A DNA stretch of 44,234 nucleotides from NCBI GenBank assembly GCA_900128395.1, contig LT649294.1, positions 1 to 44,234 of the forward strand. Direction: 5' to 3'. This document shows positions 8,007 to 37,959 of this stretch, one piece after another; the stretch's first letter is position 1; each line of letters starts with the position of its first letter. A program made the position numbers and the translations under genes. The notes beneath the pieces were generated by a model that saw nothing but the letters and a program-made list of their open reading frames with translations, was not told the origin of the DNA and did no database searches. Source of the DNA: Stramenopiles sp. TOSAG23-2 (taxonomy: Eukaryota).

Positions 8007-8013
8007 ATTTATA
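7683..8013. repeat. ~166-bp tandem duplication, copies differing by one T in a homopolymer
   Basis: aacctttgaagtgattctc...tgtcatatttata at 7683-7848 (T10) and 7849-8013 (T9). Confidence 0.93.
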
Positions 8014-8916
8014 AAGTAGGGAAGACAAGGACGAATTTATATAAATCTGTAGAAACACAAAAACACTACAAAAACACTTTCAAGAATTAATACTCAAAAC
8101 TAAACCGCTTAAAAAAATATATACAATGCAGTTAAAAAAGGTAAAGTATTTTGCCTACGTTTACTTAAGTATTGTACTTTGATTGTTTTAAAATGCATAA
8201 TTTATGTTTTCTTTTCGTAACATTTATTAGTTTAGTTTAGTTATTATTACTATTATTGATTGTATTGTTATCAGACTATTTTATTAATAATAACGCTGAG
8301 GAGAGTGAAATAATAAATTATTCTACACTCTACACGACAATCGTCTCCCTCTTTTTGTTTTTGCCTAGCTCTAAGCAAATTAAAGTTTGGAAACCGAAAG
8401 ATATAGAGGTTTTTATTTTCTGCCTTTTTCCAATGCTATTTCTATGTCATTAGGTGTACAAGTTAATTGGGCTTTGCTCAGCTAGACTAATTAATAATAT
8501 TACTTGATTAAAATTATGATAGGACAACAGACTTTATAACTTTCTAAAGAAGATACAGTATTATTTGTCTGTTTAGTAATTTGCAGAAAAAAAAATGAAG
8601 TTAAAAGTAACAAAAAGATTATGATTGCAAAGTATTAATAGCTAAACACAGCATTATTAATAATATCAAAAAAAAAAAAAAGAATAGTGTGGACTACTGG
8701 TGCAATAATTATATTATAGACCATTATTATTATCATTATAATTATTATTATTTATTTGTTATGTTATATCCAAATATATATAAAGGTTTATATGAAAAGT
8801 AAATATCTTGCTAGTTGTGAATATTAATCTATATATACACGTTATCAGTCAAATAATAAATAACGTCAACGATTATATATACAAAACAAATAGACAGTAC
8901 TTATTGATTTTCAAAC

Positions 8917-15309: not shown

Positions 15310-15454
15310 AAATGTAATTTATAAAAAATTTTATATCGACGCCCATAAATCTTTTTTTTTTGTACAAACGGGATTAAATATTATTAAATATCGTATAAAA
15401 ACTATGTTTAACATGAATATCTTTACTGTACACAATACACTTCTCTTTTGTGTT

Positions 15455-15587
15455 TCAATCATTTAAATCACCATTACCTTCTCCTACATCTCTACCATTT
15501 TCATCATAATAATTTGCTTTTCCACCTTTTGAACGTAAAAGTGCAATGATCTCTTGGCGAAGTGGACTATCATTATATCGATATGCC
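15455..15587 (-). pseudogene. Orphan variant copy of the ankyrin-cassette C-terminal tail
   Basis: Translates AYRYNDSPLRQEIIALLRSKGGKANYYDENGRDVGEGNGDLND*, a near-copy of 15630-15762, which reads AYARTDSPLCQ...GRRVGIGNGDLND*. Confidence 0.85.
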
Positions 15588-15629
15588 ACGTGTATTTAAT
15601 TATAATTAAAGTACGAAGTAAAGCGAGTT

Positions 15630-16810
15630 TTAATCATTTAAATCACCATTACCTATTCCTACACGTCTACCATTTTCATCATAATAATTTGCTTTTCCAC
15701 CTTTTGAACGTAAAAGTGCAATGATCTCTTGGCAAAGTGGACTATCAGTACGAGCATATGCCCAGTCCAGGGGAGTGCATCCCGCCAAGTTCTTCTTATT
15801 AATACTCTCAAGAGTCATATGAGTTAATAACAACTCAATCAACTCAGTATTCGTACTGTTAAACCATGCTGCATAATGTAATGCATTCCTTCCATGCCTA
15901 TTTGCAATATTAGGATCAGCTTCACCTTGTTCAATTAAATATTGAACTANNNNNNNNNTGCAATATTAGGATCAGCTTCACCTTGTTCAATCAAAAATTG
16001 AACTACTTGGAAATGTTCGTTCCTTGCAGCTATCATTAAAGGTGTCCATTCATAACCACTACTAGTTTTACCGACTTGATTCACCATATCTTTCAATGTC
16101 ATCTCATCTCTGTAGCCATTCACATCACAATTAGTAATATATTTGTGATAAGGATGAAGATTCATAAATAATTCTACATCATTCATACATCCGCGTTGAC
16201 ATGCACATACGATAGGTGTTGGTACTCGCTCTCTGTGTCTTGTACCACGTGGAAACTCTCTTTGATATCTTGCAATTAATAAATATAATCTTTTCGCTGG
16301 ATGTGTTAGTAGTATCTCATTGATACTTCTTCTACCTTCATAACTTAGACTCAATGCTATATCACGTACACGTTCAAAATCATCTGATCCAAATGCTTTT
16401 CTACATTGTTGTATTGCATCTTCTGGAAACTCTTGTTTATATCTTACAATTAATAAATAAAGTCTTCTCGCTGGATGTGTTAGTAGTATCTCATTTATAC
16501 TTCTTCTACCTTCATAATCAAGCCTCAATGCTATATCACGTACACGTTCAAAATCATCTGATCCAAATGCTTTTCTACATTGTTGTATCAAAGACGATCG
16601 TTTTACATTACATAATGATCCAATATTTAAATATTGCAATATATTTAATAAGATCCCGCAGGCAGACTCAAATCCAGCTGGTAAAACTAATATACCAATC
16701 TTAATAGGTGGTGGTGCCCTTTTTTGTTTTAACCCTTCAATCGTTGCTGGTTTTAACGTCGTACGACGTTGTCGTTTTGCATGTGGCGGTTTGGTAGTAA
16801 TCGACGCCAT
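15630..16810 (-). CDS. Ankyrin-cassette protein A with basic N-terminus, weak F-box-like segment and duplicated 58-aa unit; spans the N gap
   Basis: ORF 15947-16810 plus the segment left of the gap (VQYLIEQGEADPNIANRHGRNALHYAAWFNSTNTELIELLL...TPLDWAY). Ankyrin motifs TPIVCAC, TPLMIAA, NALHYAA and TPLD. Confidence 0.8.
15950..15958. other. Scaffold gap (9 N)
   Basis: N run. The flanks overlap by about 47 bp with 2 mismatches. Confidence 0.98.
16250..16588 (-). repeat. Diverged in-frame 174-bp (58-aa) tandem repeat
   Basis: IQQCRKAFGSDDFERVRDIAL(RLD/SLS)YEGRRSINEILLTHPA(R/K)RLYLLI(V/A)RY(KQ/QR)EFP occurs twice. Confidence 0.92.
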
Positions 16811-17216
16811 CTTGTATATCTTATATATATATCTTATATATATATATATATATATAGTCTCTCTCGCTCTTATATTTTCTACTATTTCTATTATTCATTT
16901 ATTCTTAGTTTGACGAATTCCAATCAATAAAATGCACTACTATAAATGAACAATGAAACTAGAATGCAAACCAGGCAAAGGGGGGAGGACGAAAATATAC
17001 ACGAGAGAGAGGAGTTTTGTGAAAATTAAAAAAAAAACTATCTACGATACGTAAAAAATAAAAAAACGACGCGTTATTTTCGAAAAAAATGATTATAATA
17101 GAAGTAGAAACATTTTATACGAGATACCTTTTTTACTTTTACACACACATCTTTATCCTAAATGGTCTCTCATATTATTAAAACATTCCTCCCCCCCATA
17201 AAATAATAATCAAAAT

Positions 17217-17735
17217 CTACTTTTTAACTTTTGTTTTTTGAATAATATGATTCAATGTATCTTTATTATATGCATCATCCCTATCTTTACCTTGTATAAC
17301 ATCAACGTATCCATCCGGATTTGGTTTATTACCCCATGACAATGTTGGTTTTTTATGAACACCATATTTTTGACGTATTGCATCACGTGATAAGATAAGT
17401 CCTTTCACTCTAAATTTCGATAAACTAGGTTGGTTATAATTCATAGTACCTTTCTCTGTTACATCGATTGGTACACGTACATATCGCCACGTTGGCATGC
17501 CTTCCGCATCAGTATGTTTGATTCTCACATCCAATGCACCGAATAAACGCGTTTTGCCGATAGGTGAAAACGTGGTGTTTAAAAATTTCGCTGGTCCTAA
17601 ACTATTTGTTTTTGTATTTGATACTAAATTTGATACTTTTTCTAATAAAGTCTTCGTTGCATATATATTATCCATGGATAATAATATGGTCGTAACAATG
17701 ATACATATGGTATATATATTATACGTGGCCACCAT
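17217..17735 (-). CDS. Hypothetical secreted protein
   Basis: 172-aa ORF with a hydrophobic N-terminus (IYTICIIVTTILLS). No family recognised. Confidence 0.65.
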   Translation of the reverse strand: MVATYNIYTICIIVTTILLSMDNIYATKTLLEKVSNLVSNTKTNSLGPAKFLNTTFSPIGKTRLFGALDVRIKHTDAEGMPTWRYVRVPIDVTEKGTMNYNQPSLSKFRVKGLILSRDAIRQKYGVHKKPTLSWGNKPNPDGYVDVIQGKDRDDAYNKDTLNHIIQKTKVKK

Positions 17736-19044
17736 CGTCGTTGTTATTCAATACAAGAGTATACACACAGGAAAAAGAGATGATTAGATAGATAAAACTA
17801 TAAATCAGATACACAAACAATACTCTTCTTGATCACTTTGCAAACATTACATTCACTCTCTATCTATACCTTTTGCACTTTACAATATAATGTTTTGTGA
17901 CCCCTGCCCTGAATTTATGTAAAATAAGTTTTCACTGATAATGCAATTTAAGGATTATTAAAATATTTGTAAAAATAGTTTATATTACACAACCAAAATA
18001 TATTTTATACAGAATAATAATATACTTAATATTACAAAATATTTAATTTTATACTTGATTAACATTGACACCCCTACACGAACACGGAGGAATTGGTTGT
18101 TTTTTTGCTTTTCCCCTTCTTTTTCCATCTCATTTTTTTTTGTTCCTCGCCCTCCTATCTCCTATCAAAATACAATATGTTAGACCTATCAAATCCTATT
18201 TTACACTATGAAGAGATATCGAATATAAAACTACACATCATATAAATAATTCTGTCAAATAGTACAGACGGAATTTGATCAGATCTAGATCATAGAATTA
18301 TATATAATACTCTACTACGGATATTTTAACAACAAATAGTATGATTGATCAAATAACTCAATCGATGAGATCCATGTAAAGAATACTCCCACTAATGCTA
18401 TTTATATGTTATTTGCAATGTTCTTTCTACCAATTAAACTTGATCGTTGCCATTCATTCATTGTTCTATATTTCATCATTTCTACATATTTCTTTGATCT
18501 CTAATTAATGCTATGTCCTGTTATTCGACCCTCATCCGATCGTAGTTCACATCTTTTTCAACAAGAAAATCCAAATAAAAAAACACATAGAAAATCGACC
18601 AAAAAATCAATAAAAAGATTTATATATATAGACATAGTTAATGAAGGGGGGGAGATAAGCATAAAGATAGTAAAAAAACAATAGAACTTGTTATAAGAAT
18701 ATTCAACCATTTACTAACAAGTGTTTTATATATATAGATATTCATTGTAATCATTGGAATAGATACATATATATATATATATATATTATATTTTTTTTTG
18801 GCCAATTTAATTTAATTACCTAAAAATTAAACAAAAATTACCGATTTAATAGGGGAAGATATAAATATATATAATAGGATATACGAATTATTCTTTTTTT
18901 ACTGTGAAAGAATTATATATATATATTAATATAAAATAGGAGTAATACACATCACAACAGATATATATATATACACTATATATATATATATAATATACAT
19001 ACACGTATTAGAATTTTATAACAGAAACCATCCATATTCAAACA

Positions 19045-21648
19045 ATGTCACGATGGTTTCGTTCCTCGGAAATGGAATATGTACAAATTATATGCCCACA
19101 AAGTGTTGTTTTTAAATGTGTACAATTATTAGGAGAACAAGGTTCGTTTCAATTTATTGATCAATACCCTAACAAAACAACGGTACAACGTGGCTCGCAG
19201 CATAGGCTATTTGCACATGCCATTAAAGAAATTAAACGTTGTGATAATATGGAACGTATTTTACGTTATTTAAACCAACAAGCACGTAAATCACAAGTTA
19301 TGCCGTCGAATAATAATGATTTAGAAGGTTTTAATAATGGGGAAAATGGTGGTTTTAATGATAAATTTAAATTTGATCAAGTATTAAAATTATTAAAAGA
19401 TGCAGAAGTGGAAGTACGCACACAAACAAAGTTAGTAGCTCAACATACACGTGATATGAATGTAGCGTTGGAATTGAATCGTGTATTGAAAGCTGCTAAG
19501 CAACGTTATGCAGAAGGTAATGCAGAAGCTGAACCAGATCGTGAAAGCTTATTGATGAATATGGATACTGGATCGGATGATGTACGTATTGAAATGATAG
19601 GTGGTGTAGTTGATCGTAAAGTGGAGCAAGGATTGTTGCGTCAAATTTTTCGTGCATCTAGATCCAATGCAATTACGTATTTCAGCCCTATCGATGATGT
19701 ACAATTGTTTGATCCAGATACGCAAGAACCAGCCAATCTAAGTGTTGTCTTGGTATTTTTTCAACGATCGGAGGAATTAAAGAAAAAAATTCAAAAATGT
19801 TGCGTTGCATACGGTGCACGTACATATCCATTACCAGATATACGTAAACGGGATGAAGTCGATGCTATGATTGGTCAGACAAATCAAGATTATTTAAATA
19901 CATTTAAAATACGCAATGCACATTTTCAAAATTTACAAAATATGTTACGTATACGTATTGTGAACAATTTAGAAAAATGGACCGTTGATGTAAGGCAAGA
20001 GAAAAGTGCACATCATAACATTACTAAATTTAAAGTACAAGGGGATATCAATTCACAAAATTTAATTGCATATGGATGGGTATTGAAAAGCAAATCAAAT
20101 GATTTAGCAATGGGATTGCAAAATTTAGGCGATATGGGCCAAACACCGATTATGACCAGGCAAAACAAGGATGATTGGCCAGGGGATCCACCAACACATT
20201 TTGATACCAATAAAGTCACCTCCGTATTCCAAGGCATTGTGAATACATATGGTATACCAAGGTACCAAGAAGCAAATCCTGCATTGTTTGAAGTGATTAT
20301 GTTTCCATTTTTATTTGGTGTGATGTATGGAGATATAGGACATGCAACTGTTTTATTGTTAGTATCCATTTATTTCATTCGTAATGAGAAAGAATTAGGT
20401 AAACCTGGTGCACTTGGTGATATGGCTGGGATGGCATTTGGTGGTAGGTACATGTTGCTTTTAATGAGTATCTTTGCCATTTACATGGGGTTCATTTATA
20501 ACGACATGTTTTCGTTGAATTTACCATTATTTGCAAGTACATGGGAACCATCAAATGTGAAACCAACGAAAAACAATACATTAGTACCAGCATATAAGTT
20601 GCCAACGACGACGTATCCATTTGGTATGGATCCGACATGGAGAATTGCTGGAAATCAATTATCCTTCGTGAATAGTTTTAAAATGAAAATGTCCGTCATA
20701 TTAGGTGTATCGCAAATGCTTTTCGGTGTTTTATTGAAATTTTCAAATGCAATACATTTTAAAAAACCACTAGATTTAATATTTGAATGTATACCGATGT
20801 TAGCATTTGGATTAGGAATCTTTGGTTACATGTTATTTTTAATCTTTTATAAATGGAGTATTGATTGGCATGGACCGGAAGGTATGGCAGGTGGATATGG
20901 ACCACCATCGTTAATAGTGAATATATTGAACATGGTCTTATCCCCTGGATCTGTTCAAGATGCAATGTATGGGCGCGTGCCGGAGAAATGGCCTGTACCA
21001 GGAAAAGTATCACGTGTGAATTTATGCACCGTTGCAAATGGATGTGGTCAAGCAAGGGTGCAAAACAATTTATTAATACTTAGTGGATTATGTATACCAT
21101 TGATATTATTACCAAAACCGTTGTTGTTATATTATTGCAAAAATCGTGATCATCGTAGAGAAAGTGAAGATTCATTGGAATTGCCATATATGGATCATGA
21201 TGAAAGAAAAGAACAAGAATCACCGGATGCCGATGATGATGATGCTGGGCATGATGCTGGTGGGCATGGTGAAGGTTTAGGTGATTTGATGATTCATCAA
21301 ATTATTGAGACAATTGAATTTGTGTTAGGTTTCGTTTCAAATACTGCATCGTATTTACGTTTATGGGCATTAAGTTTAGCGCATGGTCAATTATCTGAAG
21401 TATTTTGGGGTAAGGCAATGTTAGCAACAATTAATATGTCTAATTTCGCAGCAGTATTTTGCGGGTATTATATATGGGCAGCTGCATCTATTGGTGTATT
21501 ATGTTTAATGGATCCATTAGAATGCTTTTTACATGCATTGCGTTTACATTGGGTTGAATTTCAAGATAAATTTTTCTATGCGGATGGTTATTTATTTGAA
21601 CCATATGATTTGAAAAAAATTGATGGAAAGTTAACTGCAGAGACGTAG
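19045..21648 (+). CDS. VPH1: V-type proton ATPase V0 subunit a
   Basis: 867 aa. Motifs FRSSEM, PPTHF, YGIPRYQEANP, FPFLFGVMYGDIGH, NSFKMKMSVILG, SNTASYLRLWALSLAH and LHALRLHWVEF. Confidence 0.97.
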   Translation: MSRWFRSSEMEYVQIICPQSVVFKCVQLLGEQGSFQFIDQYPNKTTVQRGSQHRLFAHAIKEIKRCDNMERILRYLNQQARKSQVMPSNNNDLEGFNNGENGGFNDKFKFDQVLKLLKDAEVEVRTQTKLVAQHTRDMNVALELNRVLKAAKQRYAEGNAEAEPDRESLLMNMDTGSDDVRIEMIGGVVDRKVEQGLLRQIFRASRSNAITYFSPIDDVQLFDPDTQEPANLSVVLVFFQRSEELKKKIQKCCVAYGARTYPLPDIRKRDEVDAMIGQTNQDYLNTFKIRNAHFQNLQNMLRIRIVNNLEKWTVDVRQEKSAHHNITKFKVQGDINSQNLIAYGWVLKSKSNDLAMGLQNLGDMGQTPIMTRQNKDDWPGDPPTHFDTNKVTSVFQGIVNTYGIPRYQEANPALFEVIMFPFLFGVMYGDIGHATVLLLVSIYFIRNEKELGKPGALGDMAGMAFGGRYMLLLMSIFAIYMGFIYNDMFSLNLPLFASTWEPSNVKPTKNNTLVPAYKLPTTTYPFGMDPTWRIAGNQLSFVNSFKMKMSVILGVSQMLFGVLLKFSNAIHFKKPLDLIFECIPMLAFGLGIFGYMLFLIFYKWSIDWHGPEGMAGGYGPPSLIVNILNMVLSPGSVQDAMYGRVPEKWPVPGKVSRVNLCTVANGCGQARVQNNLLILSGLCIPLILLPKPLLLYYCKNRDHRRESEDSLELPYMDHDERKEQESPDADDDDAGHDAGGHGEGLGDLMIHQIIETIEFVLGFVSNTASYLRLWALSLAHGQLSEVFWGKAMLATINMSNFAAVFCGYYIWAAASIGVLCLMDPLECFLHALRLHWVEFQDKFFYADGYLFEPYDLKKIDGKLTAET

Positions 21649-21836
21649 AATATAAGAGTGGTGTGGTGGTATAGAGTGGTAGTGATAATAGTAATAAAGT
21701 ACACTCTGTTTTATTTCCATGTGTAGGGTATGTATAAAATATGATGGACGAACTGCGTACGAGAGTCGAGAGTAAACAAAAAATACGTGTGGTAAAAAAA
21801 ATTACGACGTAATTTGAGAAAAACATCATCTCTCTT

Positions 21837-22352
21837 TTAAATTATCTCAATAATACTCGCAAATTGTTCTGCATACTTAAATTTTTTCTTATCTTCTTCA
21901 CGTAATATTGCTTTATCGACACGTTCACGTATTTTCCGTTCTTTTGTTCGTATTGCACGTTTTGGTAATGATAAATCAATTTTATCTGTTAAATCATTTA
22001 TATTTTTAATATTTGTTGTTGGTGAATGAATATTAATTAAAATAAATACATCTTGAACTATTGTGCCATTCCGAGCAACACATTTAAAACTGCCATTTTC
22101 ACCAATTTGTTTATTTACACGCAAATCAAAATTTTCACTACTTTGCTTGGTACGTGATATACGAGCAGGATTACATTTTATTACATCATGATAATTATTA
22201 TTGACAAACGTTTTTAAGACATTAATTAAATTTGGACAATGTGTTGAATGAGTTGTAGTGATTTTTTTCATTACTTCTTTCGTCGTATAGTTTCGATGAT
22301 ATTTATTGAATATCGGTGATTTCAATGGTATTAAATGTTTGTGGATAAACAT
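21837..22352 (-). CDS. DUF2103-like protein with possible organellar targeting peptide
   Basis: HSTH...PARI...LRV...FKCVARNGTIVQDVFI resembles the DUF2103 signature (HST...GFKLIAR.G..VQEVF). The N-terminus is basic and poor in acidic residues. Confidence 0.65.
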   Translation of the reverse strand: MFIHKHLIPLKSPIFNKYHRNYTTKEVMKKITTTHSTHCPNLINVLKTFVNNNYHDVIKCNPARISRTKQSSENFDLRVNKQIGENGSFKCVARNGTIVQDVFILINIHSPTTNIKNINDLTDKIDLSLPKRAIRTKERKIRERVDKAILREEDKKKFKYAEQFASIIEII

Positions 22353-23181
22353 TTTTTGGTATTTTTATGATTTTTCGATACTTTCTATCTACAATGTTTT
22401 CTATATTGTTCCTTTCTCTTGTGTGCTGCTTTAGGAGGAAGGAGAGAAAGGGATATATATATATTTTGATCGATCGAATCCGAAAATATTATATAGGTAT
22501 TTTAAAGATATTAGTATACAAACAAATACAAACTTATAAAAATATTAACACCCCACAGTCGTCTATACTATCCTCTGATAAAATTTATAACCATTTGACG
22601 GAAATAACCAAAACAAATACATTTTTATCAATATAAATCTCCGATATTATCATCCTTATAGCATTATACTACAACAGAAACAGTGCTACAGTTTATCCTG
22701 ATTTCTAATATAGTAGGTACATAGCATTATAAATTTGCGAATTTACTTTTTCACTTCAATATTTTTTCTCCGAGAAAAATGACATTTCTTAGTTAAAAAT
22801 ACCTGGTAATAAAACACAACAAAATAACACTATTTATAATGGGAAATATATATACCATAGATGGTCAAAAGGAAAACCATTTACATGTATACATAGTTTG
22901 ATGAAAGACAATATATATATATTAGATGTACGTGAATATATAATTATTTATACAACAAGACGATATAATAAATATTATTATATAAATTATTTACAATTAT
23001 TACCATCTTGATTTTGGATATATATATATACATTTTGAAAAAAAGCGAATAATTAATAATATTAAATTTAAATTAAACGAAAATCACACAATATTTTTTT
23101 TGAAAAATATCTTATATAGTGAAATTGAAGTTATACGAAGAATTAATTTACGACAGTATACATTAAATTGAACATACTATT

Positions 23182-26100
23182 ATGGCATCGTTAGTAAATG
23201 CTGACGCCAGTGAAAATAATACGCCAAAAAATGATAATTTTCTCACTACTGTAACAACAGCGTACTCCAAATCATCATCAACAGCCTCTTCCACAAAAGA
23301 TAAATCAAATACAAATGATACGTCAAAGTCTGAAGAAACATTTTTAAAAATTGTTGATTATGCCACATTTATCAATGATTCATACGATAATAAACCAGTT
23401 ATACATGGGAGTGGAATTAAATGCAAATTTACAGAAGAGCATGCAGATAAAGAGTATACTCACGAGTGCGAGGGCTGGGAACTGCTGTTACATGAAGGCT
23501 ATACGGAAACACCTGATTCAACAGGCTTAATATCACCATCAATATCCGCCGTGAAAGTTTGGAAAGCAGGTACTAAATTATGTGTTGCATTTAAAGGTTC
23601 GAAAACTGCTATGGAATGGATAAGCAATGCTAATATTGGAGAAAACGATAAGATTGTGCCAAAATTACAAGAGAATGATTTATTTAGGGTTGAGGTTGAA
23701 CAACTAAATGAAAGTAAAATTGAAGATGAAACAGAAAATGATTCTAACAACAGTATTCAAAATGATGATGAAGATGATATAGGCCAAAGTGAATCTAAAG
23801 ATAATAATGAGGCACAAGATGAAACACAAAATGAGAATGCCCACCAAGAAGATGCAAGGATTGGCAATGAATCGAAACATAATGACGATGAATCTAAAAA
23901 CAATGACGATGAATCCAAGCAAGATGACGATGAATCAAAACATGATGACGATGAATCCAAAATTGCGGACAATGGCGATGAGGAAGATAATGAAGGCGCA
24001 AACAACAACAACAACGGTGAAAATAGTGAAAATACCACTACCACATGCGCAAAAGTACACCAGGGTTTTCTGGACGGATATCTATTTTTACGTGATAAAA
24101 TTATTCATGCAATCAAGGAGAATCTTAACGAAAACAATCAAGTCATTAACGATTTCAAAGAAATTTGGGTTTGCGGCCATTCACGTGGTGGTTCAATTGC
24201 ATCTATTGCAGCTGTTGATTTAGCAAATAGTTTTAATCTGGAAAAAGGCCAAGTAAAAAGTTTAACAATTGGATCTCCTGCAGTTGGGGATGAATTGTTT
24301 CGTAAATTATATGAAGAAAAAGTTGGATCTGAAAATACATATCGTATGATTAATTATTTTGATCCTGTCCCACGTTTATTTGATTTTGTTAATCCAGTAG
24401 CACGTGCAGTAGCAAAAAAAAATGTAGCAGTACATGTTTGTAAGCCATACATTCTTGATTTTGGGTTTTGGCATGCATACGCAAACCTTGCTATTGATGT
24501 TCATTCCGTCCCTGATAAAATAAAGAAACTTGTAGAAAATGCTTACAAACATCATTTTCGTGCCAATTATTTTAAAAACATGTATGAGTATCGATCGAAA
24601 TGGGATTTTTGGGTGCAAAATATCAAGAAGCTTGACTTCAAAACTATTAAGAATTGCGCATTATCGTTTGTGCGATGTGGTACAGATAAAAATGGTAAAA
24701 CGGTCGTATCTTATGTTAAACATACCGTGTCAACAGTAGCAGGGACTAGTAGTAAAAGTGCCAGTACAACAGTAACAAATGCAATTGTAAATGCAACACC
24801 ACTTGGTTGGATCAATCTTGCTGTTAATGTTGTAGGACATGCTGCAACGAATCTTCACATTCATAAAATGTGGAAAGATCAAACGAAACGATTTGATGCG
24901 CTAGAAACAATAATGACGGATGTGAGAAAAGCAGTTGAAAATGCAGAGGAACGCATGATTAATACGGTTAAAAGCGAAATTGATGGTTTGAAAGTGGAAA
25001 TGAATACAGCTGTTAAGAATTTATCCGATGTTGTCAAAGGTGAATTTGATAACCATCGAATAGAAGCTCTCTCTGCGTCTACAAAGCAACTTTTCAGTTA
25101 TTTAAATGGTAATTATGGAAACTGGGACGATATTAAATCGCAGTATCGAGTACTGGAAAACAATTTATCTTACATGACGGAACATGTGAATCTGAGAGAT
25201 GAACCAGAAGTTTTGACAAAACAATGTACAAAATACGAACTGTTCGCATGCCATGTTGCCTTTCAATGCTTCTTTGAATATAGTGAAAGGGAAATTGATG
25301 GAGGGACAAAAGAAGATATGATAAAGAAGAAGATGGAATCAATTGTACAAGTGACAACAGATACCAATCTTTTGGAAATTATACGCAGTCAATTTGAAAA
25401 AGATGTAAATTTGCATGTCAGTCGAAACAAATATGTTGAAGGCCGAAAGAATCATCTAATTCGCTCCGTAGCACCGCATGTCAGATGTTGTATACAAAAT
25501 CTAGAAAATATTGAAGAGGCAGTACAAATATCAAAATGTTTTGATAGTTTATGTTTACATCTAAATGTATTAAAAGACGATTGCCATGGGTCAATCTTGT
25601 TATCACGTAATTTTCATTTATTATGTAATGACAATAGTAATCGAAATTGCAATGACTCCACAGAAATTGTGTCCAGTGGAAATGTTCTAAGTAATAATAA
25701 ATGGATTTATCCTGTACGAGCGCGTGTTGATTACGATGTACAGGATGTAATTAATGTTGCTAAGTCGTTGTTACATGATGATATATTTATGAAAAAAAAA
25801 TCGATATTTTATAAATTATGTATGCTAGCTACAGTTCTCAAAGAAAACAACGATTTGAAAAACTATAAAAATGCATGTGAGGTTTTAAATGATTTTTTAG
25901 ATGGGTTGTATACCAATGCGTCATTTATATGTGCATGCGAGTCGGGTAATGAAGATCATGTTAAATGGTTTATTGAATTTTATACTATTAAAGGTAGTTT
26001 AGACCATATGATTGATGAAGAAGGGTTGTATAGTACAGGCAGAAGTAAATGGACCCCGTTGTCTGTCGCATGTTTAAATGGTAAATTGAATGTTGTTACA

Positions 26101-27287
26101 ATTTTACTTCAGCACGGTGTAAATGTAGATAAACCTCGTATTCGTGATGGAAAAACAGCTTTGATGTTTGCATGTAGTGAAGGTAATACTGAAATTGTTA
26201 AGCATTTATTAGACCATGGAGGGAAAGTAGGTTTGAAGGATCATGAGAATAAGTCAGCACTTGCATATGCTCTGATTGGAAATAAAGAAGACATTGTAAA
26301 GTCTTTATTAGAAAATGTCACATATGAAATTGCATTAAATGCAAAAGGCAATTTTGAAGAATCATGTCGTGAAATTACAACAAATGAAAAGGGTGCAATG
26401 AAATTATTGCTTAAATGGTTGTGCAAAAAATTAATAGCGAAATATAAGAAAGAATTTCCAAAAGGTACGCCATTAGTATTTGCATGTGAAAAAGGACGTT
26501 TTGAGGATGTGAAATTATTGATTACAGGGCATAATGATGTGAATGGTAGTAATGGTAATAATAATAATAATATGACATTGAAAGAATACGTGAATCAAGT
26601 CGGTAAAGATAGTTGTATGTGCATGTGAAAAAGGACGTTTGGAGGATGTGAAAGTATTGATTACAGGGCGTAATAATGATGTGAATGGTAGTAATGGTAA
26701 TAATAATAATAATATGACATTGAAAGAATACGTGAATCAAGAAGGTAAAGATAGTGGTGGTTTTGGGAATTTACACCTTTAATGGCAGCTGCAGGACACG
26801 AACATTTCCAAGTAGTTAAATATTTGATTGAACAATGTGAAGCTGATCCTAATATTGCTTATAGTGGTGGAAAGAATGCATTACATTATGCAGCACGTTA
26901 TAACAAAAAGGATACGAAGTTGATTGAGTTCTTATTAACTAATATGCCTCTTACTAGCATTAATAAGAAGGAGGACACGAACATTTCCAAGTAGTTAAAT
27001 ATTTGATTGAACAATGTGAAGCTGATCCTAATATTGCTTATAGTGGTGGAAAGAATGCATTACATTATGCAGCACGTTATAACAAAAAGGATACGAAGTT
27101 GATTGAGTTCTTATTAACTAATATGCCTCTTACTAGCATTAATAAGAAGGACAGGCCAAGGTACGGGGAATTGACTCCCCTGGACAGGGCATATCAATAT
27201 AATAATAGTCCAATTCAACAAAAGATCATTGATCTTATACGTTCAAAAGGTGGAAAACGTGCAAAAGAATTAACAACATGGTTTTAG
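23182..27287 (+). CDS. Class-3 lipase / coiled-coil / ankyrin-repeat fusion protein (cassette B); 3' end disrupted by duplications
   Basis: Lipase_3 motifs VAFKGS, VHQGF, GHSRGG (nucleophile elbow), TIGSPAVG and DPVP. Ankyrin repeats TPLSVAC, TALMFAC and SALAYA precede the shared cassette (EFPKGTPLVFACEKG...), which continues in ORFs 26782-26994 and 27003-27287. Confidence 0.85.
23881..23961 (+). repeat. 21-bp coding minisatellite, (N/D)DDESKx x4
   Basis: NDDESKN-NDDESKQ-DDDESKH-DDDESK within an acidic insertion in the lipase domain. Confidence 0.85.
26482..26754 (+). repeat. Imperfect tandem duplication (period 139 bp) of the first part of the ankyrin cassette
   Basis: gcatgtgaaaaaggacgttt...ggtaaagatagt at 26482 and 26621. 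The copies differ by F/L, L/V, H/RN and V/E. Confidence 0.9.
26793..27150 (+). repeat. Exact 179-bp tandem duplication inside the ankyrin cassette
   Basis: aggacacgaacatttcc...aataagaagg at 26793-26971 and 26972-27150. Confidence 0.93.
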
Positions 27288-28131
27288 TTAGTAGTAATAT
27301 ATAGTAATAATATTTTATATATATATTTAATATACTTTTATAATATATCATACACAAAATAAATTGTACCCTCGTAAAATAAATATTTTCTTTTATATAC
27401 TATATATCTGATATTTAATAAAACAATTGAATACAATGATAAAGCTATTATAACGTGTACGTAACCAATATTAAATGATCCATGAGATACTAATTCGATG
27501 CAATAAAGTTTCATAAACGCATTTTAGAAGATTAAAAATGAATAATGTATCACATTTCAACTAAATTCTCACTAGAAAAACGTTGAATTTTAAAAATATC
27601 ATTGTAAAATATATATATTACGATCGTTTATAATATGCAAACCAAATTACAGACACATCAATAAAGATGCACACTACCAAGCGATAATCTAATTATTCCT
27701 ACACGCTATAAATGTATAATAAACATATTTTAAAAAAAGTAACATAATGTATTATAATTATTCATTTTAAAGGTTAACTTTGAATTTTGAAACGCTAGCG
27801 TGAAAGAAACATTTTGCAAGAGATGTGAGGTGTGTATATGTTGTATTATATAAAGATAGAAAGAGAAGCTAGAAGTATACGGTTTGATTTGATAAAAAAA
27901 CAAGACATATGTTATGCACAAAGTTTTCGTAACTTTTTATCTTTTTCATAATGTTTCATGTTTTACAAAATGTGTGTGGAGTGATTCTAAATGTTTTTAG
28001 TAATTTGTAAAGAACGTATCATATATATCATTATCATACATTATTATAAATATTGATATTTATAAATATATATGTCTTTTAGTCCCTCTCTCTGGTCTCC
28101 CTCTCATGCGCACATTTGCCAGATTGATGCA

Positions 28132-28381
28132 TACATTTGATTTCAAAAACTATTGTGTTTGATGTGATATGTATCATATTGCAAACGGCAAACCTCTCCC
28201 CTCTATTTTTATCAAAAACACATTTTGATTTCAAAAAACTAATTTACAATATATTCTACATTTGATTTCAAAAACTATTGTGTTTGATGTGATATGTATC
28301 ATATTGCAAACGGCAAACCTCTCCCCTCTATTTTTATCAAAAACACATTTTGATTTCAAAAAACTAATTTACAATATATTC
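28132..28381. repeat. Exact 125-bp tandem duplication (non-coding)
   Basis: tacatttgatttcaaaaac...acaatatattc at 28132-28256 and 28257-28381. Confidence 0.92.
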
Positions 28382-28394
28382 GAATGTATCATTT

Positions 28395-29644
28395 TTACAA
28401 TCCTAAACTTTTTAACAAATCACTTGTACTTTGTGGTTGTGTTGCTTGTTGTTGTTGTTTTCCTTGTTTCTTGTTCTTTTTTTTATTATTCTTACTACTA
28501 CTACCTTTCTTTTTTTTCTTATTTGCCCCACCTGTCGTTGTCTTCGTATCCTCTTTGTCATCATCAATAACAATAGTAGTTGTTGAACTAGTTCCTTCAC
28601 CTAAATCATCCAATGTTTTATTTAATGTCATTGTAAATATTTGTTCTAATTTCTTATCACGTATATTTAAATGTTGTAAAATATTCAATGCTTGTAAACA
28701 ATGTTTCTTTGCATTACGCAATTCTCCTAATGCAAATTCAACACTTGCAGCCGTGCCAATGCACATCGCTTATATGGATATACATATATGATATATATAT
28801 ATAGTTTGTTGTTAGATATATAATATATATACATTTATATAATATTTACAATAAATAATGGAACAGAAGATATTATTAATAATAAGCGTGACTTACCTGC
28901 ATATTTACTCGTTGTTGTATTGACTAAATATTTAAATGCAATTTTTAAATGCAATAAACTTTTTGAAAAATCTTGTTTTTGTGCATAACTTTGTCCTTTT
29001 GAAAAATGTTCTTTAAATTTTGTAATACGTTCATCATCTTTCAATTGATTGATTTGTTTTTGCGCAGCACTATTGTTCACATCATTACTACTATTGTTGT
29101 TGTTGTTATTGCTTAAGAAATAATCATCAATATTATCAATGCTTGTATTTGTATTATTTAATTCAAATTCTTCTTTTAATAAATCTTCTGTACTAACGAT
29201 TGCTTCAATGCCTTGTGTAACTAATGCTTTTTTACGATTACGTTCTTTTAATATTGCATCTTCTTTCTTTTTCAATCTAGCATCGATTTTCAATTGTTGC
29301 GTTGCTGAAATAGTTTGCTCTTCCGCTTCATTTGCTGCTACAAAGACACCAACTTCTAATGCTTCTTTACGTTTTTCTGCTGCAATTTTACCTTTCGCAA
29401 ATGTTAATAATGAATTTAATTTTTCAGATTGATCTTCTTCATCTGAATCTGTTTCTGGTTCATCTTTATCTGCATTATGTAATATCGATGATACGGTAAT
29501 TTGACCTTTCTTTTTCTTCTTTTTCTTTGTTTTCTTTGCCGTACTATCATTAATCAATGCATCATCACGTCGTTTTTGTTCCTCTGCACTAATATATTTA
29601 CCTGGATTTAATGGGTCATCAAAAACTTCAGTAAATTCTGACAT
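28395..29644 (-). CDS. TPR-like protein, 2 exons (29644-28897, 28768-28395)
   Basis: A GTAAGT...CTAAC...AG intron at 28896-28769 joins the frames as SKYA-A-MCIGTAASVEFALGELRNAKKHCLQAL. Helix pattern is TPR-like. Confidence 0.75.
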
Positions 29645-30124
29645 TTTGTGTATTAATTATTAATTATTATTATTATTATACTAAAATATTCTATGTTTTT
29701 GTTAATATAACAAAAGATACTACAATACTGTAAATATGTATATATATATTGTGTATATATATTGTATATATGAATTGATAGTTATACAATCACGATTATA
29801 TTATGTATATATACAATATGTATATATGTCTGTATAATTTTTTATTTATTCAAATTTAAATTAAAATTATTCCAATTTATCAAATATATATTATAATATT
29901 AATATATTTAATTAGGGAACGAAGAATAAAAATTGTTGTTATAATTGTTTAAAAAAATAAAAAAGCCAAACACACAAGTATTGTTGTTGAATTTAACACC
30001 CCGTACTCTTTTTTATATATGTTTTATCTTTGTTCAAACGATGTGTTATATATATTCGTATGTTTCTATATATACCTGCGGTGTTGGTGTTTACTGGTTA
30101 GCCGATTGATGCATTTTCATTCTA

Positions 30125-30530
30125 TCCATACATGTTTAATATTGATAAATGTCATGTCAATCTATACACATACATAACTACACACTATTGAATACACAAA
30201 GATAGAATCAATGTCATTTTACATATATTAAATACTTCCATCCATACCTGTTTAATCTCGATAAATGTCATGTCAATCTATACAAATAGATAACGACACA
30301 ATATTGAAAACACAAAAATACAATCAATGTCATTTTACATATATAAATAAAATATGATTTTTTTTGCCTTTTCGTCGGTCTTCATTACAATTTATTTGTT
30401 GCTGAGGCATTAACGACACAATATTGAAAACACAAAAATACAATCAATGTCATTTTACATATATAAATAAAATATGATTTTTTTTGCCTTTTCGTCGGTC
30501 TTCATTACAATTTATTTGTTGCTGAGGCAT
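30125..30530. repeat. Diverged ~116-bp tandem repeat overlapping an exact 120-bp duplication
   Basis: tccatac.tgtttaat...gataaatgtcatgtcaatctatac...aatcaatgtcattttacatatat at about 30125 and 30241. 30291-30410 is identical to 30411-30530. Confidence 0.88.
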
Positions 30531-30846
30531 GAGGCATGAGGCAGCCAGCATACAGCAGCGAGCGAGCGAGTGGTATATATATATATATAAAAGTGAAAGA
30601 AATAATACCTACTTTTGTAAAATACGAGATAGAAAAGAAAAAACAGACCCAGTGTTTACAGTATTAGTTGCAACAATACATATACATTTTTTGTTTATAT
30701 ATATATAAATTGTAAATTATAACAACATTTTTACTCCCAATTATTATTAATATTAATTATTACTTAATAATTTGGAATTTCATAAAATATATATATACAT
30801 ATATTATTTTGGATATTGATACATACATCTCTAACGTATAGGAAAC

Positions 30847-32018
30847 ATGAAAATGAATAGACAAGGATCATTGTTGATGGTAGGAACATTAATAATAGCA
30901 ATTCTAATGAATGTATATATTGTATGTATTAATGGACAAGCGCAACAACAACAACAGCAACGACCACCAATGCCACCTCCATCACATGAAGGACATGCGC
31001 ATCAACAACAAGAGCAACAACATATGCCACCACAACAAGGTGGATATCGACCACCGCCACCACCACCTGGTTATGGTGCGCAACAGATGCATTATCAACA
31101 TCATCAACAGCAACAACAACAGGGTGAAGGGAATGTTCCACAATATGGACAACATATGCCCCCACCCCCAAAGTAAGTAAATTATATTATATAATCACGA
31201 CAGATAACACTTTTAATCTAACATAAAAATATTATATATATAGTTATTATCAACATGCACAACAACAACAATATCAACAACATCAACAACAACAACAACC
31301 GCAACATGGAATGCCGCCACCACATATGTATCAACAACAACAACAACATGGAGGATATCAACCACCACCACCACATGGTTATGGATATCCACCACATATG
31401 ATGCATCAACAACAACAACAACAACAACAATATGGACATCAACATCATATGCCACCACCAAAGTAAGTATATATGCAAAATGCAGTTACATTCATATACA
31501 TACATTTATATACAGACGTCTAACATCATATATATATATATATATATAGTTTCAATATGCATCAACAATATTTACAACAATTTATGCCTGGAATGCCACC
31601 GCCACAACAACAACAACACCATCAACATGGTATGCCACCACCACCTCCACCACATCAACAACAACAACAATATGCAAATTGGCAACAAGGTGCTGGTGGT
31701 AATTCAATGCCAAATCCACAACATTTTCAACATCAAGAACATATGCATAATATACCAGGTGCAACACCAAATAGTCAATATCAAAAACAACCGGAAACAT
31801 TTGGTGGACATGGTGGAAAATATGTACCACCACCACCACCACCACCAATCTTACCACGTTTATGGCCAAAACAAGGTGGAGAGAAAGGAGGAAAAGGCGA
31901 TGATGCAGCGACAACCAATAATAATAATAATGATGATCAAAGTGGTAAAGCATCATTGGAAGATAAAATAGCAAAAATTAAAAATGCATTGAAAGAATTT
32001 CAAAAAGATGAGTTGTAA
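30847..32018 (+). CDS. Q/P/H-rich secretory-pathway protein with C-terminal KDEL, 3 exons (30847-31172, 31244-31462, 31550-32018)
   Basis: Signal peptide (LLMVGTLIIAILMNVYIVCING). Two phase-2 GTAAGT...CTAAC...TAG introns keep the frame. Ends EFQKDEL*. Confidence 0.85.
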
Positions 32019-32898
32019 AAATATTTCGTGTTGGATATTTTGTATTCAAAATATTTGAAGGAGAATAATGGTTGAAAATCCACGAGAGATTAAATAAAGC
32101 GTGTCTCGATTTACGAGGGAAGTGTATTTAAAAAAGAATTTGTATTGTGTGTGTAATTTAATTTGAAAATCTGAATTTAATAACTACGTAAATCTTTTTT
32201 ATTTATATACACCTGTCACATTAAATTTACTTTTAACTTTATTAATTTTTAAACTCTACGGCCGTATTTTTTTCCCGTTTGTCTTCCTAATATTCCATGT
32301 AGTGAATGGTGCCACGACCATTTGCAATCAACAATATTGTGAGCAATACCTAATATTATGATGCGTTGTATTTCTATGGAATATGACCAATTAAATTGAT
32401 ATGATATAATAATAAATTATGTTTTTGTTTGTAACGACATTTACCAGGAAAAGAAATAGAAAAAACACATAATTTCAACGTTTGAATTCAATAATTTAAA
32501 CGATAAAATAAAATTGTATCAAGACTTGATTGCGTATACATCATTGTTTATAATATCTCCATAGATAATAAATTGTGATAAAATTGTGTTGTATTGTTGA
32601 TATTAAAAATAATAAGAGAAGACGTTTTAACTTTCATTAGATTGTCGTTATTAATTTCTATTTTTTTTACCATAATTATTTTAATTCAGTGTAAACAATG
32701 AAGTAAAACGAAAGACTGGAATAATCAGGAGAGTGTTCTTTTGTCTTGTGTGTGTGTCGTCTGTCATGTACGAATGGTGTGTTGGCGGTCTACGATGTAT
32801 ACATATATCTGAAAAAAGTTTAATAGAGGGTATTTTTTAGATTGTGTATTTCATTAATTTACTTCAATATTTATTTAATTTTTTATGTTTAAATTTTT

Positions 32899-34740
32899 TT
32901 ATAATTCCCTCCATTTTTTTCCACCTTTTGAACGTATAAGATCAATGATCTTTTGTTTAATTGGACTTTTATTATATTCATATGCCCAGTCCAGGGGAGT
33001 GTCCCCCCCGCCCTTCTTATTAATGCTAGTAAGAGACATATTAGTTAATAACAACTCAATTAACTTCGTATCCTTTTTGTTCCAACGTGCTGCTAAATGT
33101 AATGCATTCGATCCATAACTAATTGCAATATTAGGATCAGCTTCACCTTGTTCAATCAAATATTTAACTATTTGGAAATGTTCGTCTCTTGCAGCTATCA
33201 TTAAAGGTGTATTTTCACCACCACGAGTATCTTTACCGACTTGATTCACGTATTCTTTCAATGTCATACCACTTTCATTCGCATCATGGGTTTCTACTAA
33301 AACTTTAACAACATCCAACATACCTTTCTCGCTTGCAATAATTATACCTATATGCTTCCAATAACTTTTCATCACTGCTTGATGCCCCGTATCCAACCAT
33401 TTCTTTACTTGTTCATCGGTTAAATTACCCCAATCCGTATTAAATTCTTTTATTGATTTATTTTTTTTCATGACATTACATATTTCATCAATAACATCAT
33501 TGGTTAAATCATAATATGTCACGGATTCAATTTTATTTAAACGTATAGCATCTAAATTTAATCCACCACCTACTTCAAATAAATGTTGAATATATTGACG
33601 AATACTTATACCCATCGCTCGCGTTGCAATGTATACTTCTAATAACGTACGTGTTATTGATATTGCAGATAATATTAATGACAATCCTAACGTTTGTTCT
33701 GTATTTAATTTAAAAAAATATAAATCTAATGTTTCGTTTGGATTAAAACCACATGTTTTATCATCAGTGCATGTGAAATATAATATTAATTGCAATATTG
33801 TTTGTGGAAATGATTCACATAATACTTCAATTAATACACGTAATGCTTCATATTGTATCATGAAGATTGATAATTTAGTTGGTGTACATCGATTCAATGG
33901 ACGATAAAAGATAATGTATATATCTAATATTGGTACAAGTGGTATGGATAATGGTAATAATATACAACGTTTGATGTTGTTTTGTCGTATTTGTTTGGTT
34001 TTCTGTTCGAGAGATTTATCATAATCTTTAAATGATTTGCTTGGGTTGACTTTTGTGGCTGACTTATTACCGCTACCATCGCTGTATTTCCAATTAAGAT
34101 CATACGTATTATCATCATTCACTTTTGTAATCTTTCCTTTACCATACTCGTATCCATCCTCCCATTTATATTTATACTCCACCTCATCACCAACTTGCAA
34201 ACGTTTCCTTGGATTTTTAAATAAATCGGTTTTAAAATATACATTTATACCAAACCATCCTAATCCAAATTGTAATGTTAAAAAACTCAACATGAAATAA
34301 TACATCATTTGTACATATCCATTGGTTGATTTTGATAAATTAACTAATAATGCAATATCGGATGACATATCTAACCAATAACATAATATTTTAAAGAAAA
34401 TATTTAATGCCAAAAGTAATGATATAAATCTTGGATATTTTTCTTGTATTTTATTTAAACATCTTCCACATGATTTTACTTTCTTATTTTTATATGAACG
34501 TATTCTTGAACGGATACGTCGTGGACGTTGTTTTTTCTCTTTTTTCTTTCCATTTGTTTCACTTGGATGTATTTTAGTTGATAATTTCTTCTTTGCTTGA
34601 TCATCCAGTATCGACCCAGCAACGACTGTACCACCAACTAATGCAAGACCACCCGCTTCCATCATCGTTTCCGTTGTCCCTACATTGGCATTATCCAACA
34701 ATTCACCACTTTGCGTAATGGCATCAATTACTTGTGACAT
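32899..34740 (-). CDS. XK-related (scramblase-like) membrane domain + Tudor/SH3-like insert + ankyrin cassette C
   Basis: XK-like motifs WLDMSSDIALL and EVLCESFPQTILQL with several TM segments. Insert LQVGDEVE...GKITKVNDDNTYDL. C-terminal cassette MTLKEYVNQVGKD...IRSKGGK. Confidence 0.85.
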   Translation of the reverse strand: MSQVIDAITQSGELLDNANVGTTETMMEAGGLALVGGTVVAGSILDDQAKKKLSTKIHPSETNGKKKEKKQRPRRIRSRIRSYKNKKVKSCGRCLNKIQEKYPRFISLLLALNIFFKILCYWLDMSSDIALLVNLSKSTNGYVQMMYYFMLSFLTLQFGLGWFGINVYFKTDLFKNPRKRLQVGDEVEYKYKWEDGYEYGKGKITKVNDDNTYDLNWKYSDGSGNKSATKVNPSKSFKDYDKSLEQKTKQIRQNNIKRCILLPLSIPLVPILDIYIIFYRPLNRCTPTKLSIFMIQYEALRVLIEVLCESFPQTILQLILYFTCTDDKTCGFNPNETLDLYFFKLNTEQTLGLSLILSAISITRTLLEVYIATRAMGISIRQYIQHLFEVGGGLNLDAIRLNKIESVTYYDLTNDVIDEICNVMKKNKSIKEFNTDWGNLTDEQVKKWLDTGHQAVMKSYWKHIGIIIASEKGMLDVVKVLVETHDANESGMTLKEYVNQVGKDTRGGENTPLMIAARDEHFQIVKYLIEQGEADPNIAISYGSNALHLAARWNKKDTKLIELLLTNMSLTSINKKGGGDTPLDWAYEYNKSPIKQKIIDLIRSKGGKKWREL

Positions 34741-37217: not shown

Positions 37218-37450
37218 TTCCCACCTGCATTAGTATTAGCACCAGTAACCATCCCAACCACATTGGCAGATGAAATTTGGCCACTAACTACCGTTTGTAC
37301 CTTTCCTGACGTAAACGCTATATACGGAGTTGCTGATGTAGTAGTGCTACCACCATCGCCAACGTTCATAGTATGTAGAGAGACCACAGAACCTGCAGCT
37401 TTATTTTCATCAATTTGGAATAGATAGTTATGTGAAGGTACAAATGGCAA
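37218..37450 (-). pseudogene. Inverted fragment of a cadherin-like surface protein
   Basis: The minus strand reads PFVPSHNYLFQIDENKAAGSVV (cadherin start P.F....Y.F.I.EN...G.VV) followed by S/T/G-rich sequence. No plausible start or end. Confidence 0.5.
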
Positions 37451-37959
37451 AACTGGACGCTATGTTATTATTCGCTCTCCAGATGCATTTACTAATGGCA
37501 TTTGGTTCCAGTACAACGGTTAGTCTTTCTGCCGTAGGACATTTTGTAGTTAATGTAGCAGATGCCAATGAACCACCTGTGGCATATGATAAATCCCATA
37601 TACGATCCGAAAATGCACCAATTGGTTCGTTCATTGATTATTATATAGCAACGGATGAAGATACAGCAGATGTGTTGACATACACGATTGTAAATGGGAA
37701 CGAAGATGGCGTTTTCAGTGTTGATACGGCCGATCCATGTTTTATTTGGTTAGCAAAATCATTAGATTATGAAACAAAACCAAAACATGTATTGGAAGTG
37801 GAAATATCAGATCGTACATGTACTTGCACAAAAATAAAGCCCTGTTTTGATACAACAACGGGCGTTTGTTACGGTACTGGGTACGATGGTACTTGCCAAA
37901 GCAGATGCCATGATGCCAAAATTAATAAATATAATCAAAAAGAATTCTCTTTGATATAA
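37451..37959 (+). pseudogene. Cadherin-domain gene fragment with Cys-rich tail
   Basis: VNVADANEPP, SENAPIGS, ATDED, LTYTIVNGNEDGVF, LDYE and VEISD make up one cadherin repeat, followed by a Cys-rich stretch and an abrupt stop. Confidence 0.75.

Follow-up and report, generated by a model that had tools for sequence, protein, structure and literature searches.

Three genes on contig LT649294.1 of Stramenopiles sp. TOSAG23-2 (assembly GCA_900128395.1), analysed here over a window of 44,234 nucleotides (nt) that comprises the whole stretch, end in the same unit of four ankyrin repeats. This unit, here called the cassette, is about 160-190 amino acids (aa) long and forms the C terminus of gene A (15630-16810, minus strand), gene B (23182-27287, plus strand) and gene C (32899-34740, minus strand). 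It defines a multigene family that is specific to this lineage, and appears to serve as a protein-binding adaptor of variable specificity that is shaped by concerted evolution together with diversification of its binding face. We favor this reading because the framework of the cassette is nearly identical between copies, while the predicted binding face has been replaced faster than synonymous sites have changed. In the mechanism that we propose, transfer of DNA from copy to copy (gene conversion, concerted evolution) would keep the framework near-identical even at synonymous sites, residues of the canonical ankyrin binding face would be replaced faster than synonymous sites change, and every cassette would link the domain fused to it with a target of its own. 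The domains linked in this way would include a lipase, kinases, zf-MYND, an XK-related-like membrane protein and parts of U-box or possibly F-box-type ligases. The targets would be fast-changing ones, perhaps foreign proteins (of prey, viruses or parasites), perhaps self proteins that evolve fast.

The cassette consists of a first repeat (R1), an Asn-rich spacer, the stretch MTLKEYVNQVGK and three further repeats (R2, R3 and R4), and it ends in ..LIRSKGGK. The original prediction had described a module of about 150 aa; a shared ankyrin unit is indeed present, but the real unit is longer, given that the members of the family place its first repeat (..EFPxGTPLVCACEKGRFEDVKLLITG..) about 40-60 aa upstream of the module first described. 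A tblastn search of the window with the gene C cassette found only genes A, B and C and one orphan tail (15518-15586), and the N-terminal parts of the three genes are mutually unrelated (best BLASTP E = 0.46). Together with the repeat arms shared between the genes, these results bear out the claim of one cassette on three unrelated N termini. At the DNA level, the copies in the window are 79-95% identical over repeat arms of 57-205 nt. Between genes B and C the arms measure 205 nt (89%), 182 nt (90%) and 84 nt (95%), between A and B 158-161 nt (84%), 92 nt (89%) and 61 nt (95%), and between A and C 144-158 nt (84-88%). The near-identity of DNA that had been noted for the B and C copies is confirmed both by these arms and by a 40-mer from the cassette, which occurs exactly at 26572-26611 (plus strand) and 33228-33267 (minus strand) and with two mismatches at 26714-26753, and which was never obtained by chance in 100 shuffles. 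The Pfam model Ank_2 (cut-off 27.3) scores 108.9 bits in gene C, 91.7 in gene B and 32.4 in the 5′ part of gene A, and ankyrin models match 70 of 70 family members. The cassette lies within continuous frames, with no introns at its borders.

Across 46 units the scaffold is nearly invariant, and entropy peaks just before the TPL/NAL motifs and at the two residues that follow AA in R2-R4. The concave face is the ankyrin binding interface, according to passages of a study of fungal NOD-like receptors (NLRs) (Dyrka et al., 2014; PMC4986451). A surface set of 18 codons (positions 2, 3, 5, 13, 14 and 33 of R2-R4) was fixed beforehand, and Nei-Gojobori counts were made over 16 DNA units (120 pairs), with the sequences compared stemming from several fragmentary assemblies. 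For the 18 surface codons, the proportions of nonsynonymous (pN) and synonymous (pS) differences were 0.479 and 0.236, respectively, with a synonymous distance (dS) of 0.283 and a ratio of nonsynonymous to synonymous distance (dN/dS) of 2.7. For the framework, pN was 0.106, pS 0.105, dS 0.114 and dN/dS 1.0. In all 120 pairs, surface dN was higher than overall dS. When 5000 sets of 18 codons were drawn at random, not one had a pN as high as that of the surface (mean 0.168, maximum 0.377), and the 10 surface codons at a distance from the loops of variable length in R2 and R4 gave a dN/dS of 2.55. The N-terminal domains of the same genes, which served as a control, had dN/dS values of 0.26-0.37 at a dS of 0.14-0.26. 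Between gene A and a relative of the same architecture in locus L009, N-terminal dS was 0.19 and dN 0.05, while the cassette had a framework pS of 0.064 and a surface pN of 0.44. Between genes B and C, whose N termini cannot be aligned, framework pS was 0.043 (2.0 of 47 synonymous sites differ). Together with the abrupt start of DNA similarity in the gene C cassette (see below), this pattern fits what one would predict if copies exchanged DNA while the binding face kept its diversity. As judged by counting methods, the cassette thus appears to combine, in the manner of NLR-type repeats, a conserved scaffold with variable and putatively positively selected binding-face residues.

Several points weigh against the reading of the cassette as a diversified adaptor. 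The surface positions were adopted from those randomised in designed ankyrin repeat proteins. The substitution counts are pooled over non-independent pairs with no recombination model, and come from counting methods rather than a formal site test. Surface pS (0.24) lies above framework pS (0.11), and heterogeneity of mutation or alignment may therefore contribute to the contrast. A framework dN/dS of about 1 is odd for a constrained scaffold; the framework as counted includes the variable positions 1, 10 and 16, which fall outside the surface set. Moreover, exchange between classes seems to have been limited, because the subtype of the cassette (alpha or beta) mostly tracks the class of the N terminus: alpha in 8 of 8 FBL1 and 3 of 3 FBL4 members, and beta in 6 of 6 FBL2, 2 of 2 XKR-like and 3 of 3 coiled-coil members, with class FBL3 alone, a tandem pair in locus L006, mixed (1 alpha, 1 beta). 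Part of the family may also be decaying, since three units are disrupted: that of gene B, one in L008 (1310-1795, in-frame stop) and one in L011 (5971-6493, frame shift before the last repeat). The disrupted cassettes of L008 and L011 are either pseudogenes or assembly errors.

Subtype tracking, which simple duplication predicts, the framework ratio near 1 and the existence of disrupted copies could all be accommodated by an ordinary lineage-specific expansion of housekeeping ankyrin adaptors, such as substrate receptors of ligases or localisation tags, and ankyrin families do expand in many protists. The surface would then be unconstrained and the low synonymous divergence would reflect recent duplication. 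We consider this improbable. Surface dN/dS, at 2.5-2.7, is above the neutral value of 1, and the excess holds against overall dS in every one of the 120 pairs. The fusions are old, with N-terminal parts only 38-43% (lipase) and 29% (XKR-like) identical to those of relatives, yet their cassettes have diverged little at synonymous sites, for which recent duplication alone is insufficient. Furthermore, the two genes in L006 (278-1075 and 1533-2282) are tandem paralogues of one N-terminal class (dS 0.22) that carry different cassette subtypes, alpha and beta, and they would represent the clearest single case of cassette exchange.

The wider family was delimited by protein searches and by signature motifs. 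A search with the gene C cassette returned 97 proteins at E <= 1e-5, and at least two of the four cassette signature motifs are present in 50 of the 247 database proteins retrieved, 37 of these coming from that search and 13 having been picked by motif from a broader one. Matches in the broader search numbered 47312 at E <= 0.001, with 329 reaching E <= 1e-30; giant generic ankyrin proteins made up most of the best 150, and no family count was drawn from this search. A pattern scan of metagenome contigs found 13 loci with 59-78% identity, some of them with two or three family genes adjacent. Proteins hold from one to four copies of the cassette, and many have two to four units or half-units. 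The partner domains that score above the Pfam cut-off are Lipase_3 (gene B and P0098), protein kinase (P0032 and P0064), U-box together with SAP (P0112), zf-MYND (P0028) and XK-related (P0038); a RING finger in P0150 falls below it. Most members have a small N-terminal part without a Pfam match, among which at least four classes look F-box-like by eye, and some members pair the cassette with a coiled-coil N terminus. PF10787 (YfmQ, Bacillus) was matched in 5 of 70 members (including P0109 and P0112) at up to E = 2e-13, falls on a repeated half-unit and was taken as spurious. The absence of a NACHT or NB-ARC switch, which had been part of the original prediction, is borne out: Pfam found neither domain in genes A, B and C at E <= 0.01 or at E <= 10, nor do the precomputed Pfam lists of the 97 relatives contain one; a Pfam survey of 70 family members displays the 25 commonest of its 49 families, so that a single carrier is possible. 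No published description of the cassette family was found in the literature, although supplements might list one.

Each of the three architectures has been seen on independent contigs, that of gene C in P0015, that of gene B in P0098, and that of gene A in L009 (85-88% nt identity), the minus-strand gene of L007, P0023, P0025 and P0026. In relatives with the same architecture, N-terminal identity is 38-43% for lipase plus cassette and 29% for XKR-like plus cassette. Loci L001 and L011, each from a separate assembly, share a family gene of an F-box-like class that lies between the same flanking genes in both, with three extra open reading frames (ORFs) downstream in L001. Because the architectures recur on independent contigs, in divergent relatives and in synteny, the fusions are real and old, and neither chimeras nor recent grafts. 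The cassette had been described as recently mobile or gene-converting. The first half of that description is contradicted by the divergence of the relatives and by the synteny of L001 and L011, whereas gene conversion fits the low framework pS between genes B and C.

The fusions could in principle be chimeras, assembled through repeated ankyrin sequence, and some features of the window are of the kind that such an explanation invokes. Five two-copy tandem duplications (92-179 nt, 99-100% identity; 3973-4156, 7683-8015, 26793-27151, 28132-28381 and 30291-30530) look like a systematic assembly artefact, and one of them, 92 nt long, splits a neighbouring gene for a DUF389 membrane protein into two frames (2284-4149 and 4146-4502); when one copy is skipped, the gene has 708 instead of 621 codons. 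In addition, the cassette of gene A is joined across 9 N, and that of gene B lies in three frames. Given that the five duplications are near exact and that one of them breaks the DUF389 frame, the faults in genes A and B are probably for the most part assembly artefacts. The fusions themselves are another matter, and for them a chimeric origin is largely refuted. Independent contigs of other origin show every one of the architectures again, and gene C is an uninterrupted frame of 613 aa.

Gene B is a fusion with a lipase. Its main open frame (23182-26628, plus strand; 1148 aa) encodes a class-3 lipase, a long helical middle part, a divergent ankyrin block of its own and the start of the cassette. 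The Lipase_3 domain (24019-24381, plus strand; aa 280-400) matches PF01764 with E = 5e-25 and 88.3 bits against a cut-off of 22. Its GHSRGG nucleophile motif (a GxSxG elbow) is kept in P0098, as are the FDPVP and KHH stretches, and the catalytic Asp and His were assigned by eye only. The identification of gene B as a lipase therefore stands, and a bona fide Lipase_3 domain is confirmed by profile score and motif. Gene B is not a single open frame: its ORF ends with a stop at 26628. The region of the cassette (26440-27287, plus strand; beta type) is broken into three frames and also has a 1-nt frame change. This region is 86-94% identical at the nucleotide level to units of L001, L002, L003, L005 and L011. 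It includes a 142-nt repeat (26476-26755, plus strand; 2.0 copies, 94%), with about 146 nt of half-unit and linker absent relative to L001, and the exact 179-nt tandem duplication (26793-27151, plus strand), where skipping one copy brings R2-R4 and the tail into one frame. The relative P0098 (1118 aa, on a 28-kb contig; 38-43% identity to gene B) combines the lipase, an equivalent of the long middle part and a single cassette within one open frame.

Gene C, the intact 613-aa frame, comprises a multi-pass membrane domain (XK-related-like), a beta-rich insert, a linker resembling leucine-rich repeats (LRRs) and a beta-type cassette. The XKR-like label that had been given to this gene finds partial support. 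Its membrane region (33601-34443, minus strand; about aa 100-380, limits inferred) scores 14.9 bits with PF09815 (E = 0.013), below the cut-off of 24.8, and P0015 also falls below with 11.2 bits; but the homologous P0038 (BLASTP E = 1e-18, 29% identity over 199 aa of the membrane domain), which likewise ends in a cassette, passes with 27.5 bits. A search of the ESM Atlas placed gene C with an XK-related cluster at 0.75, which is below the counting level and a lead only, and the AlphaFold model of its N terminus (predicted local distance difference test, pLDDT, 39) was too poor for use. A profile search of the PDB gave no XKR match and recovered the LRR-like linker only. The linker (33397-33525, minus strand; about aa 406-448) is of the ribonuclease-inhibitor type, as the profile, built from gene C, P0015 and P0038, matched ribonuclease inhibitor with E = 1.7e-4. 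By eye, P0022 seems to begin with an LRR-like segment that resembles this linker. The cassette occupies 32902-33375 (minus strand), and its similarity to the family at the DNA level is confined to 32917-33286 (MTLKEY.. to ..SKGGK). Similarity to every family locus begins abruptly at MTLKEY, and the first ankyrin repeat is private to gene C, with no blastn match of at least 150 nt upstream of 33286 in the 13 loci. P0015, on an independent contig, aligns with gene C end to end, with 88.7% identity in the N-terminal part and 76.1% in the cassette. The beta-rich insert in the membrane domain (..GDEVEYKYKWEDGYEYGKGKITKVNDDNTYDL..; 34150-34200 region, about aa 183-231) is absent from P0038, looks by eye like a small Tudor/SH3-like barrel and has a weak Pfam match of the STK_08120 type (E = 0.003).

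The ORF of gene A joins an N-terminal domain of class FBL1, of unassigned fold and F-box-like by eye only, to an alpha-type cassette, and Pfam finds ankyrin repeats alone. The F-box-like output that had been proposed for this gene did not hold up. No Pfam F-box family (PF00646, PF12937) matched its N terminus at E <= 10, a PDB profile search with nine N termini gave no F-box and just H2B and INO80 at E values of 0.26-3.5, and the AlphaFold2 model made from an alignment of nine sequences had a mean pLDDT of 46, too poor for a fold search. The first match in the ESM Atlas was an F-box cluster (0.85, 70 of 256 shared features), again below the counting level and a lead only. The cassette (R1-R4, 15693-16213, minus strand) is in two pieces, recovered by tblastn at 16213-15959 and 15947-15693, that flank a run of 9 N (15950-15958). 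Two contig ends were apparently butted together here, because both flanks of the run repeat the same stretch of about 45 nt with mismatches. A tandem duplication of 174 nt (16236-16583, minus strand; 90-92%) lies within the N-terminal domain. Some 40 nt past the stop of gene A is the orphan cassette tail (15455-15590, minus strand; ..SPLRQEIIALLRSKGGKANYYDENG..GNGDLND stop), which forms a 136-nt repeat with 91% identity. Positions 15394-15591 of the window match the upstream end of L009, a locus in a tandem array, and the tail is what remains of a tandem paralogue or else results from collapse of the assembly. The interval first noted for the system (15455-33345) does hold cassette genes, but it starts at this orphan copy and not at gene A.

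Around the cassette genes, both strands of the window carry long, uninterrupted and ordinary eukaryotic genes, and the base composition is AT-rich (26-41% G+C per 2-kb step over the whole window). One of them is an intron-free myosin (8917-15309, plus strand; 2130 aa) in which a motor head (Pfam Myosin_head, 623 bits) is combined with IQ motifs and a propeller tail of RCC1 type (Pfam RCC1, 232 bits). The gene for V-ATPase subunit a (19045-21648) has an environmental copy at 99% identity, and its named relatives among the 120 matches listed are stramenopiles (diatoms, oomycetes and one Rhizochromulina) at only 36-38% identity, which gives the organism, an uncultured marine eukaryote, a stramenopile affinity at a large distance from named genomes. 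Further neighbours are the DUF389 membrane protein, an SH3 protein and a mitochondrial carrier. The placement of the cassette genes among ordinary genes in both orientations had been predicted and is as described, with the myosin, V-ATPase subunit a, DUF389 and carrier genes as examples. This setting bears on whether the cassette genes might be foreign, with a giant virus or bacterial symbiont as their source; ankyrin families are common in giant viruses and intracellular bacteria, as passages of PMC4986451 also state. Such an origin is most improbable. The cassette genes share the base composition of the window and have eukaryotic genes as neighbours. Of two scans of viral contigs, one gave no relatives and the other only generic ankyrin (12 loci, 27-40% identity), with no family-level match in either, and a scan of prokaryotes (one genome per species) gave 57 loci of generic ankyrin only, which were mostly 26-40% identical, with 46-55% reached in five short or partial segments. 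Two other features of the window were noted in passing. A Gln/Pro/His-rich low-complexity gene (30847-32018, plus strand) lies in two frames, between which a GTAAGT..TAG segment (about 31465-31550) resembles a short intron, and a short ORF with a cadherin domain (37432-37959, plus strand; Pfam 45 bits) is probably a fragment of a larger gene. Of 22 sequencing runs listed, 20 (from 12 studies) contain part of 23100-33000, including 6 RNA runs with shares of 0.18-0.27, and these shares are no evidence of expression, habitat or correctness of the assembly.

The cassette is best compared with the repeat domains of fungal NLRs. Passages of Dyrka et al. (2014; PMC4986451) describe highly conserved ankyrin (ANK), tetratricopeptide (TPR) and WD repeats, with positive selection on the concave face and an inferred concerted evolution. 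Relative to what is described there, the cassette is alike in its near-identical scaffold, its variable concave face, the apparent exchange between copies and its many N-terminal domains, lipase/esterase and kinase types included. It differs in that its family is without NACHT or NB-ARC, belongs to a marine stramenopile-like protist and has an XK-related-like protein and a U-box among its partners. Whereas the fungal regime, as described in those passages, involves one 33-aa repeat iterated in one gene, the cassette unites four different repeats in one fixed block (about 160-190 aa) that several genes have in common. It is this block, together with the lack of a NOD domain, that sets the family apart from fungal NLRs. 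Within the stramenopiles, parts of a report on the brown alga Ectocarpus (PMC3341825) describe exon-shuffled, fast-evolving LRR/TPR candidate receptors with NB-ARC. The cassette family resembles these as a fast-evolving repeat-domain family of a stramenopile for which recognition has been proposed, and is unlike them, as far as those parts describe them, in that they combine LRR/TPR repeats with NB-ARC and shuffle exons; the cassette lies in continuous frames without border introns.

Such likenesses raise the question of whether the family is a dedicated innate-immune or cell-death repertoire, as first proposed, in which the cassette would sense viral, parasite or prey molecules and release an execution domain (lipase, scramblase-like protein, kinase or ubiquitin ligase) without a NOD switch. 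This is possible but doubtful. The evolutionary regime is that of the ANK/TPR/WD repeats of fungal NLRs, and lipase/esterase and protein kinase are also among the NLR effector types, as described in passages of PMC4986451; gene C, moreover, has an LRR-like element of the ribonuclease-inhibitor/NLRP type. Weighing on the other side, no NACHT, NB-ARC, TIR, death-fold or other signalling hub was found in genes A-C or in the Pfam lists of the 97 relatives, in many members the cassette is paired only with a small part (F-box-like-looking, coiled-coil or zf-MYND) that does not count as an execution domain, and the XKR identity of gene C is sub-threshold. A fast-changing binding face is compatible with an anti-virus or anti-parasite role without demonstrating one. 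One could conceive of a combinatorial recognition system without NOD in uncultured marine stramenopile-like predators, with a cassette homogenised by conversion, diversified on its binding face and coupled directly to domains that attack membranes or signal (class-3 lipase, XK-related-like scramblase, kinases and U-box/F-box-like ligase parts), in which binding of viral, parasite or prey proteins might lead to lipid scrambling, lipolysis or targeted degradation; we put this forward as a tentative picture that is rather unlikely to hold in full.

Other known proteins offer more limited parallels to the variable adaptor that we favor. In poxvirus ankyrin plus F-box/PRANC proteins and in Legionella AnkB, ankyrin repeats act as the variable target-binder on a small ubiquitin-ligase adaptor motif, within multigene families. 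Unlike these, the cassette genes are host chromosomal genes, the F-box of the gene A type is not confirmed, and the same cassette is also found on enzymes and on a membrane protein. The natural variable positions of R2-R4 coincide with the positions randomised in libraries of designed ankyrin repeat proteins, from which the cassette differs in being a natural family, in its long insertion between R1 and R2 and in its fusion to effector-type domains. Gene B is related to class-3 lipases (PF01764) through its Lipase_3 domain, and gene C to XK-related scramblases (PF09815) through its homologue P0038, which passes that model; to our knowledge, a C-terminal ankyrin module is not normal in either group.

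A frozen scaffold with a fast-changing binding face is a hallmark of recognition systems, fungal NLRs among them, and the same combination occurs in plant NLRs and in the variable lymphocyte receptors of lampreys. Even if the family were only an expansion of adaptors, it would still show clearly how genes whose N termini are unrelated can evolve in concert. If the reading of the cassette as an adaptor of variable specificity is true, it would be a natural counterpart to designed ankyrin binders, and a pointer to how abundant uncultured marine protist grazers may tell apart prey, viruses or kin.

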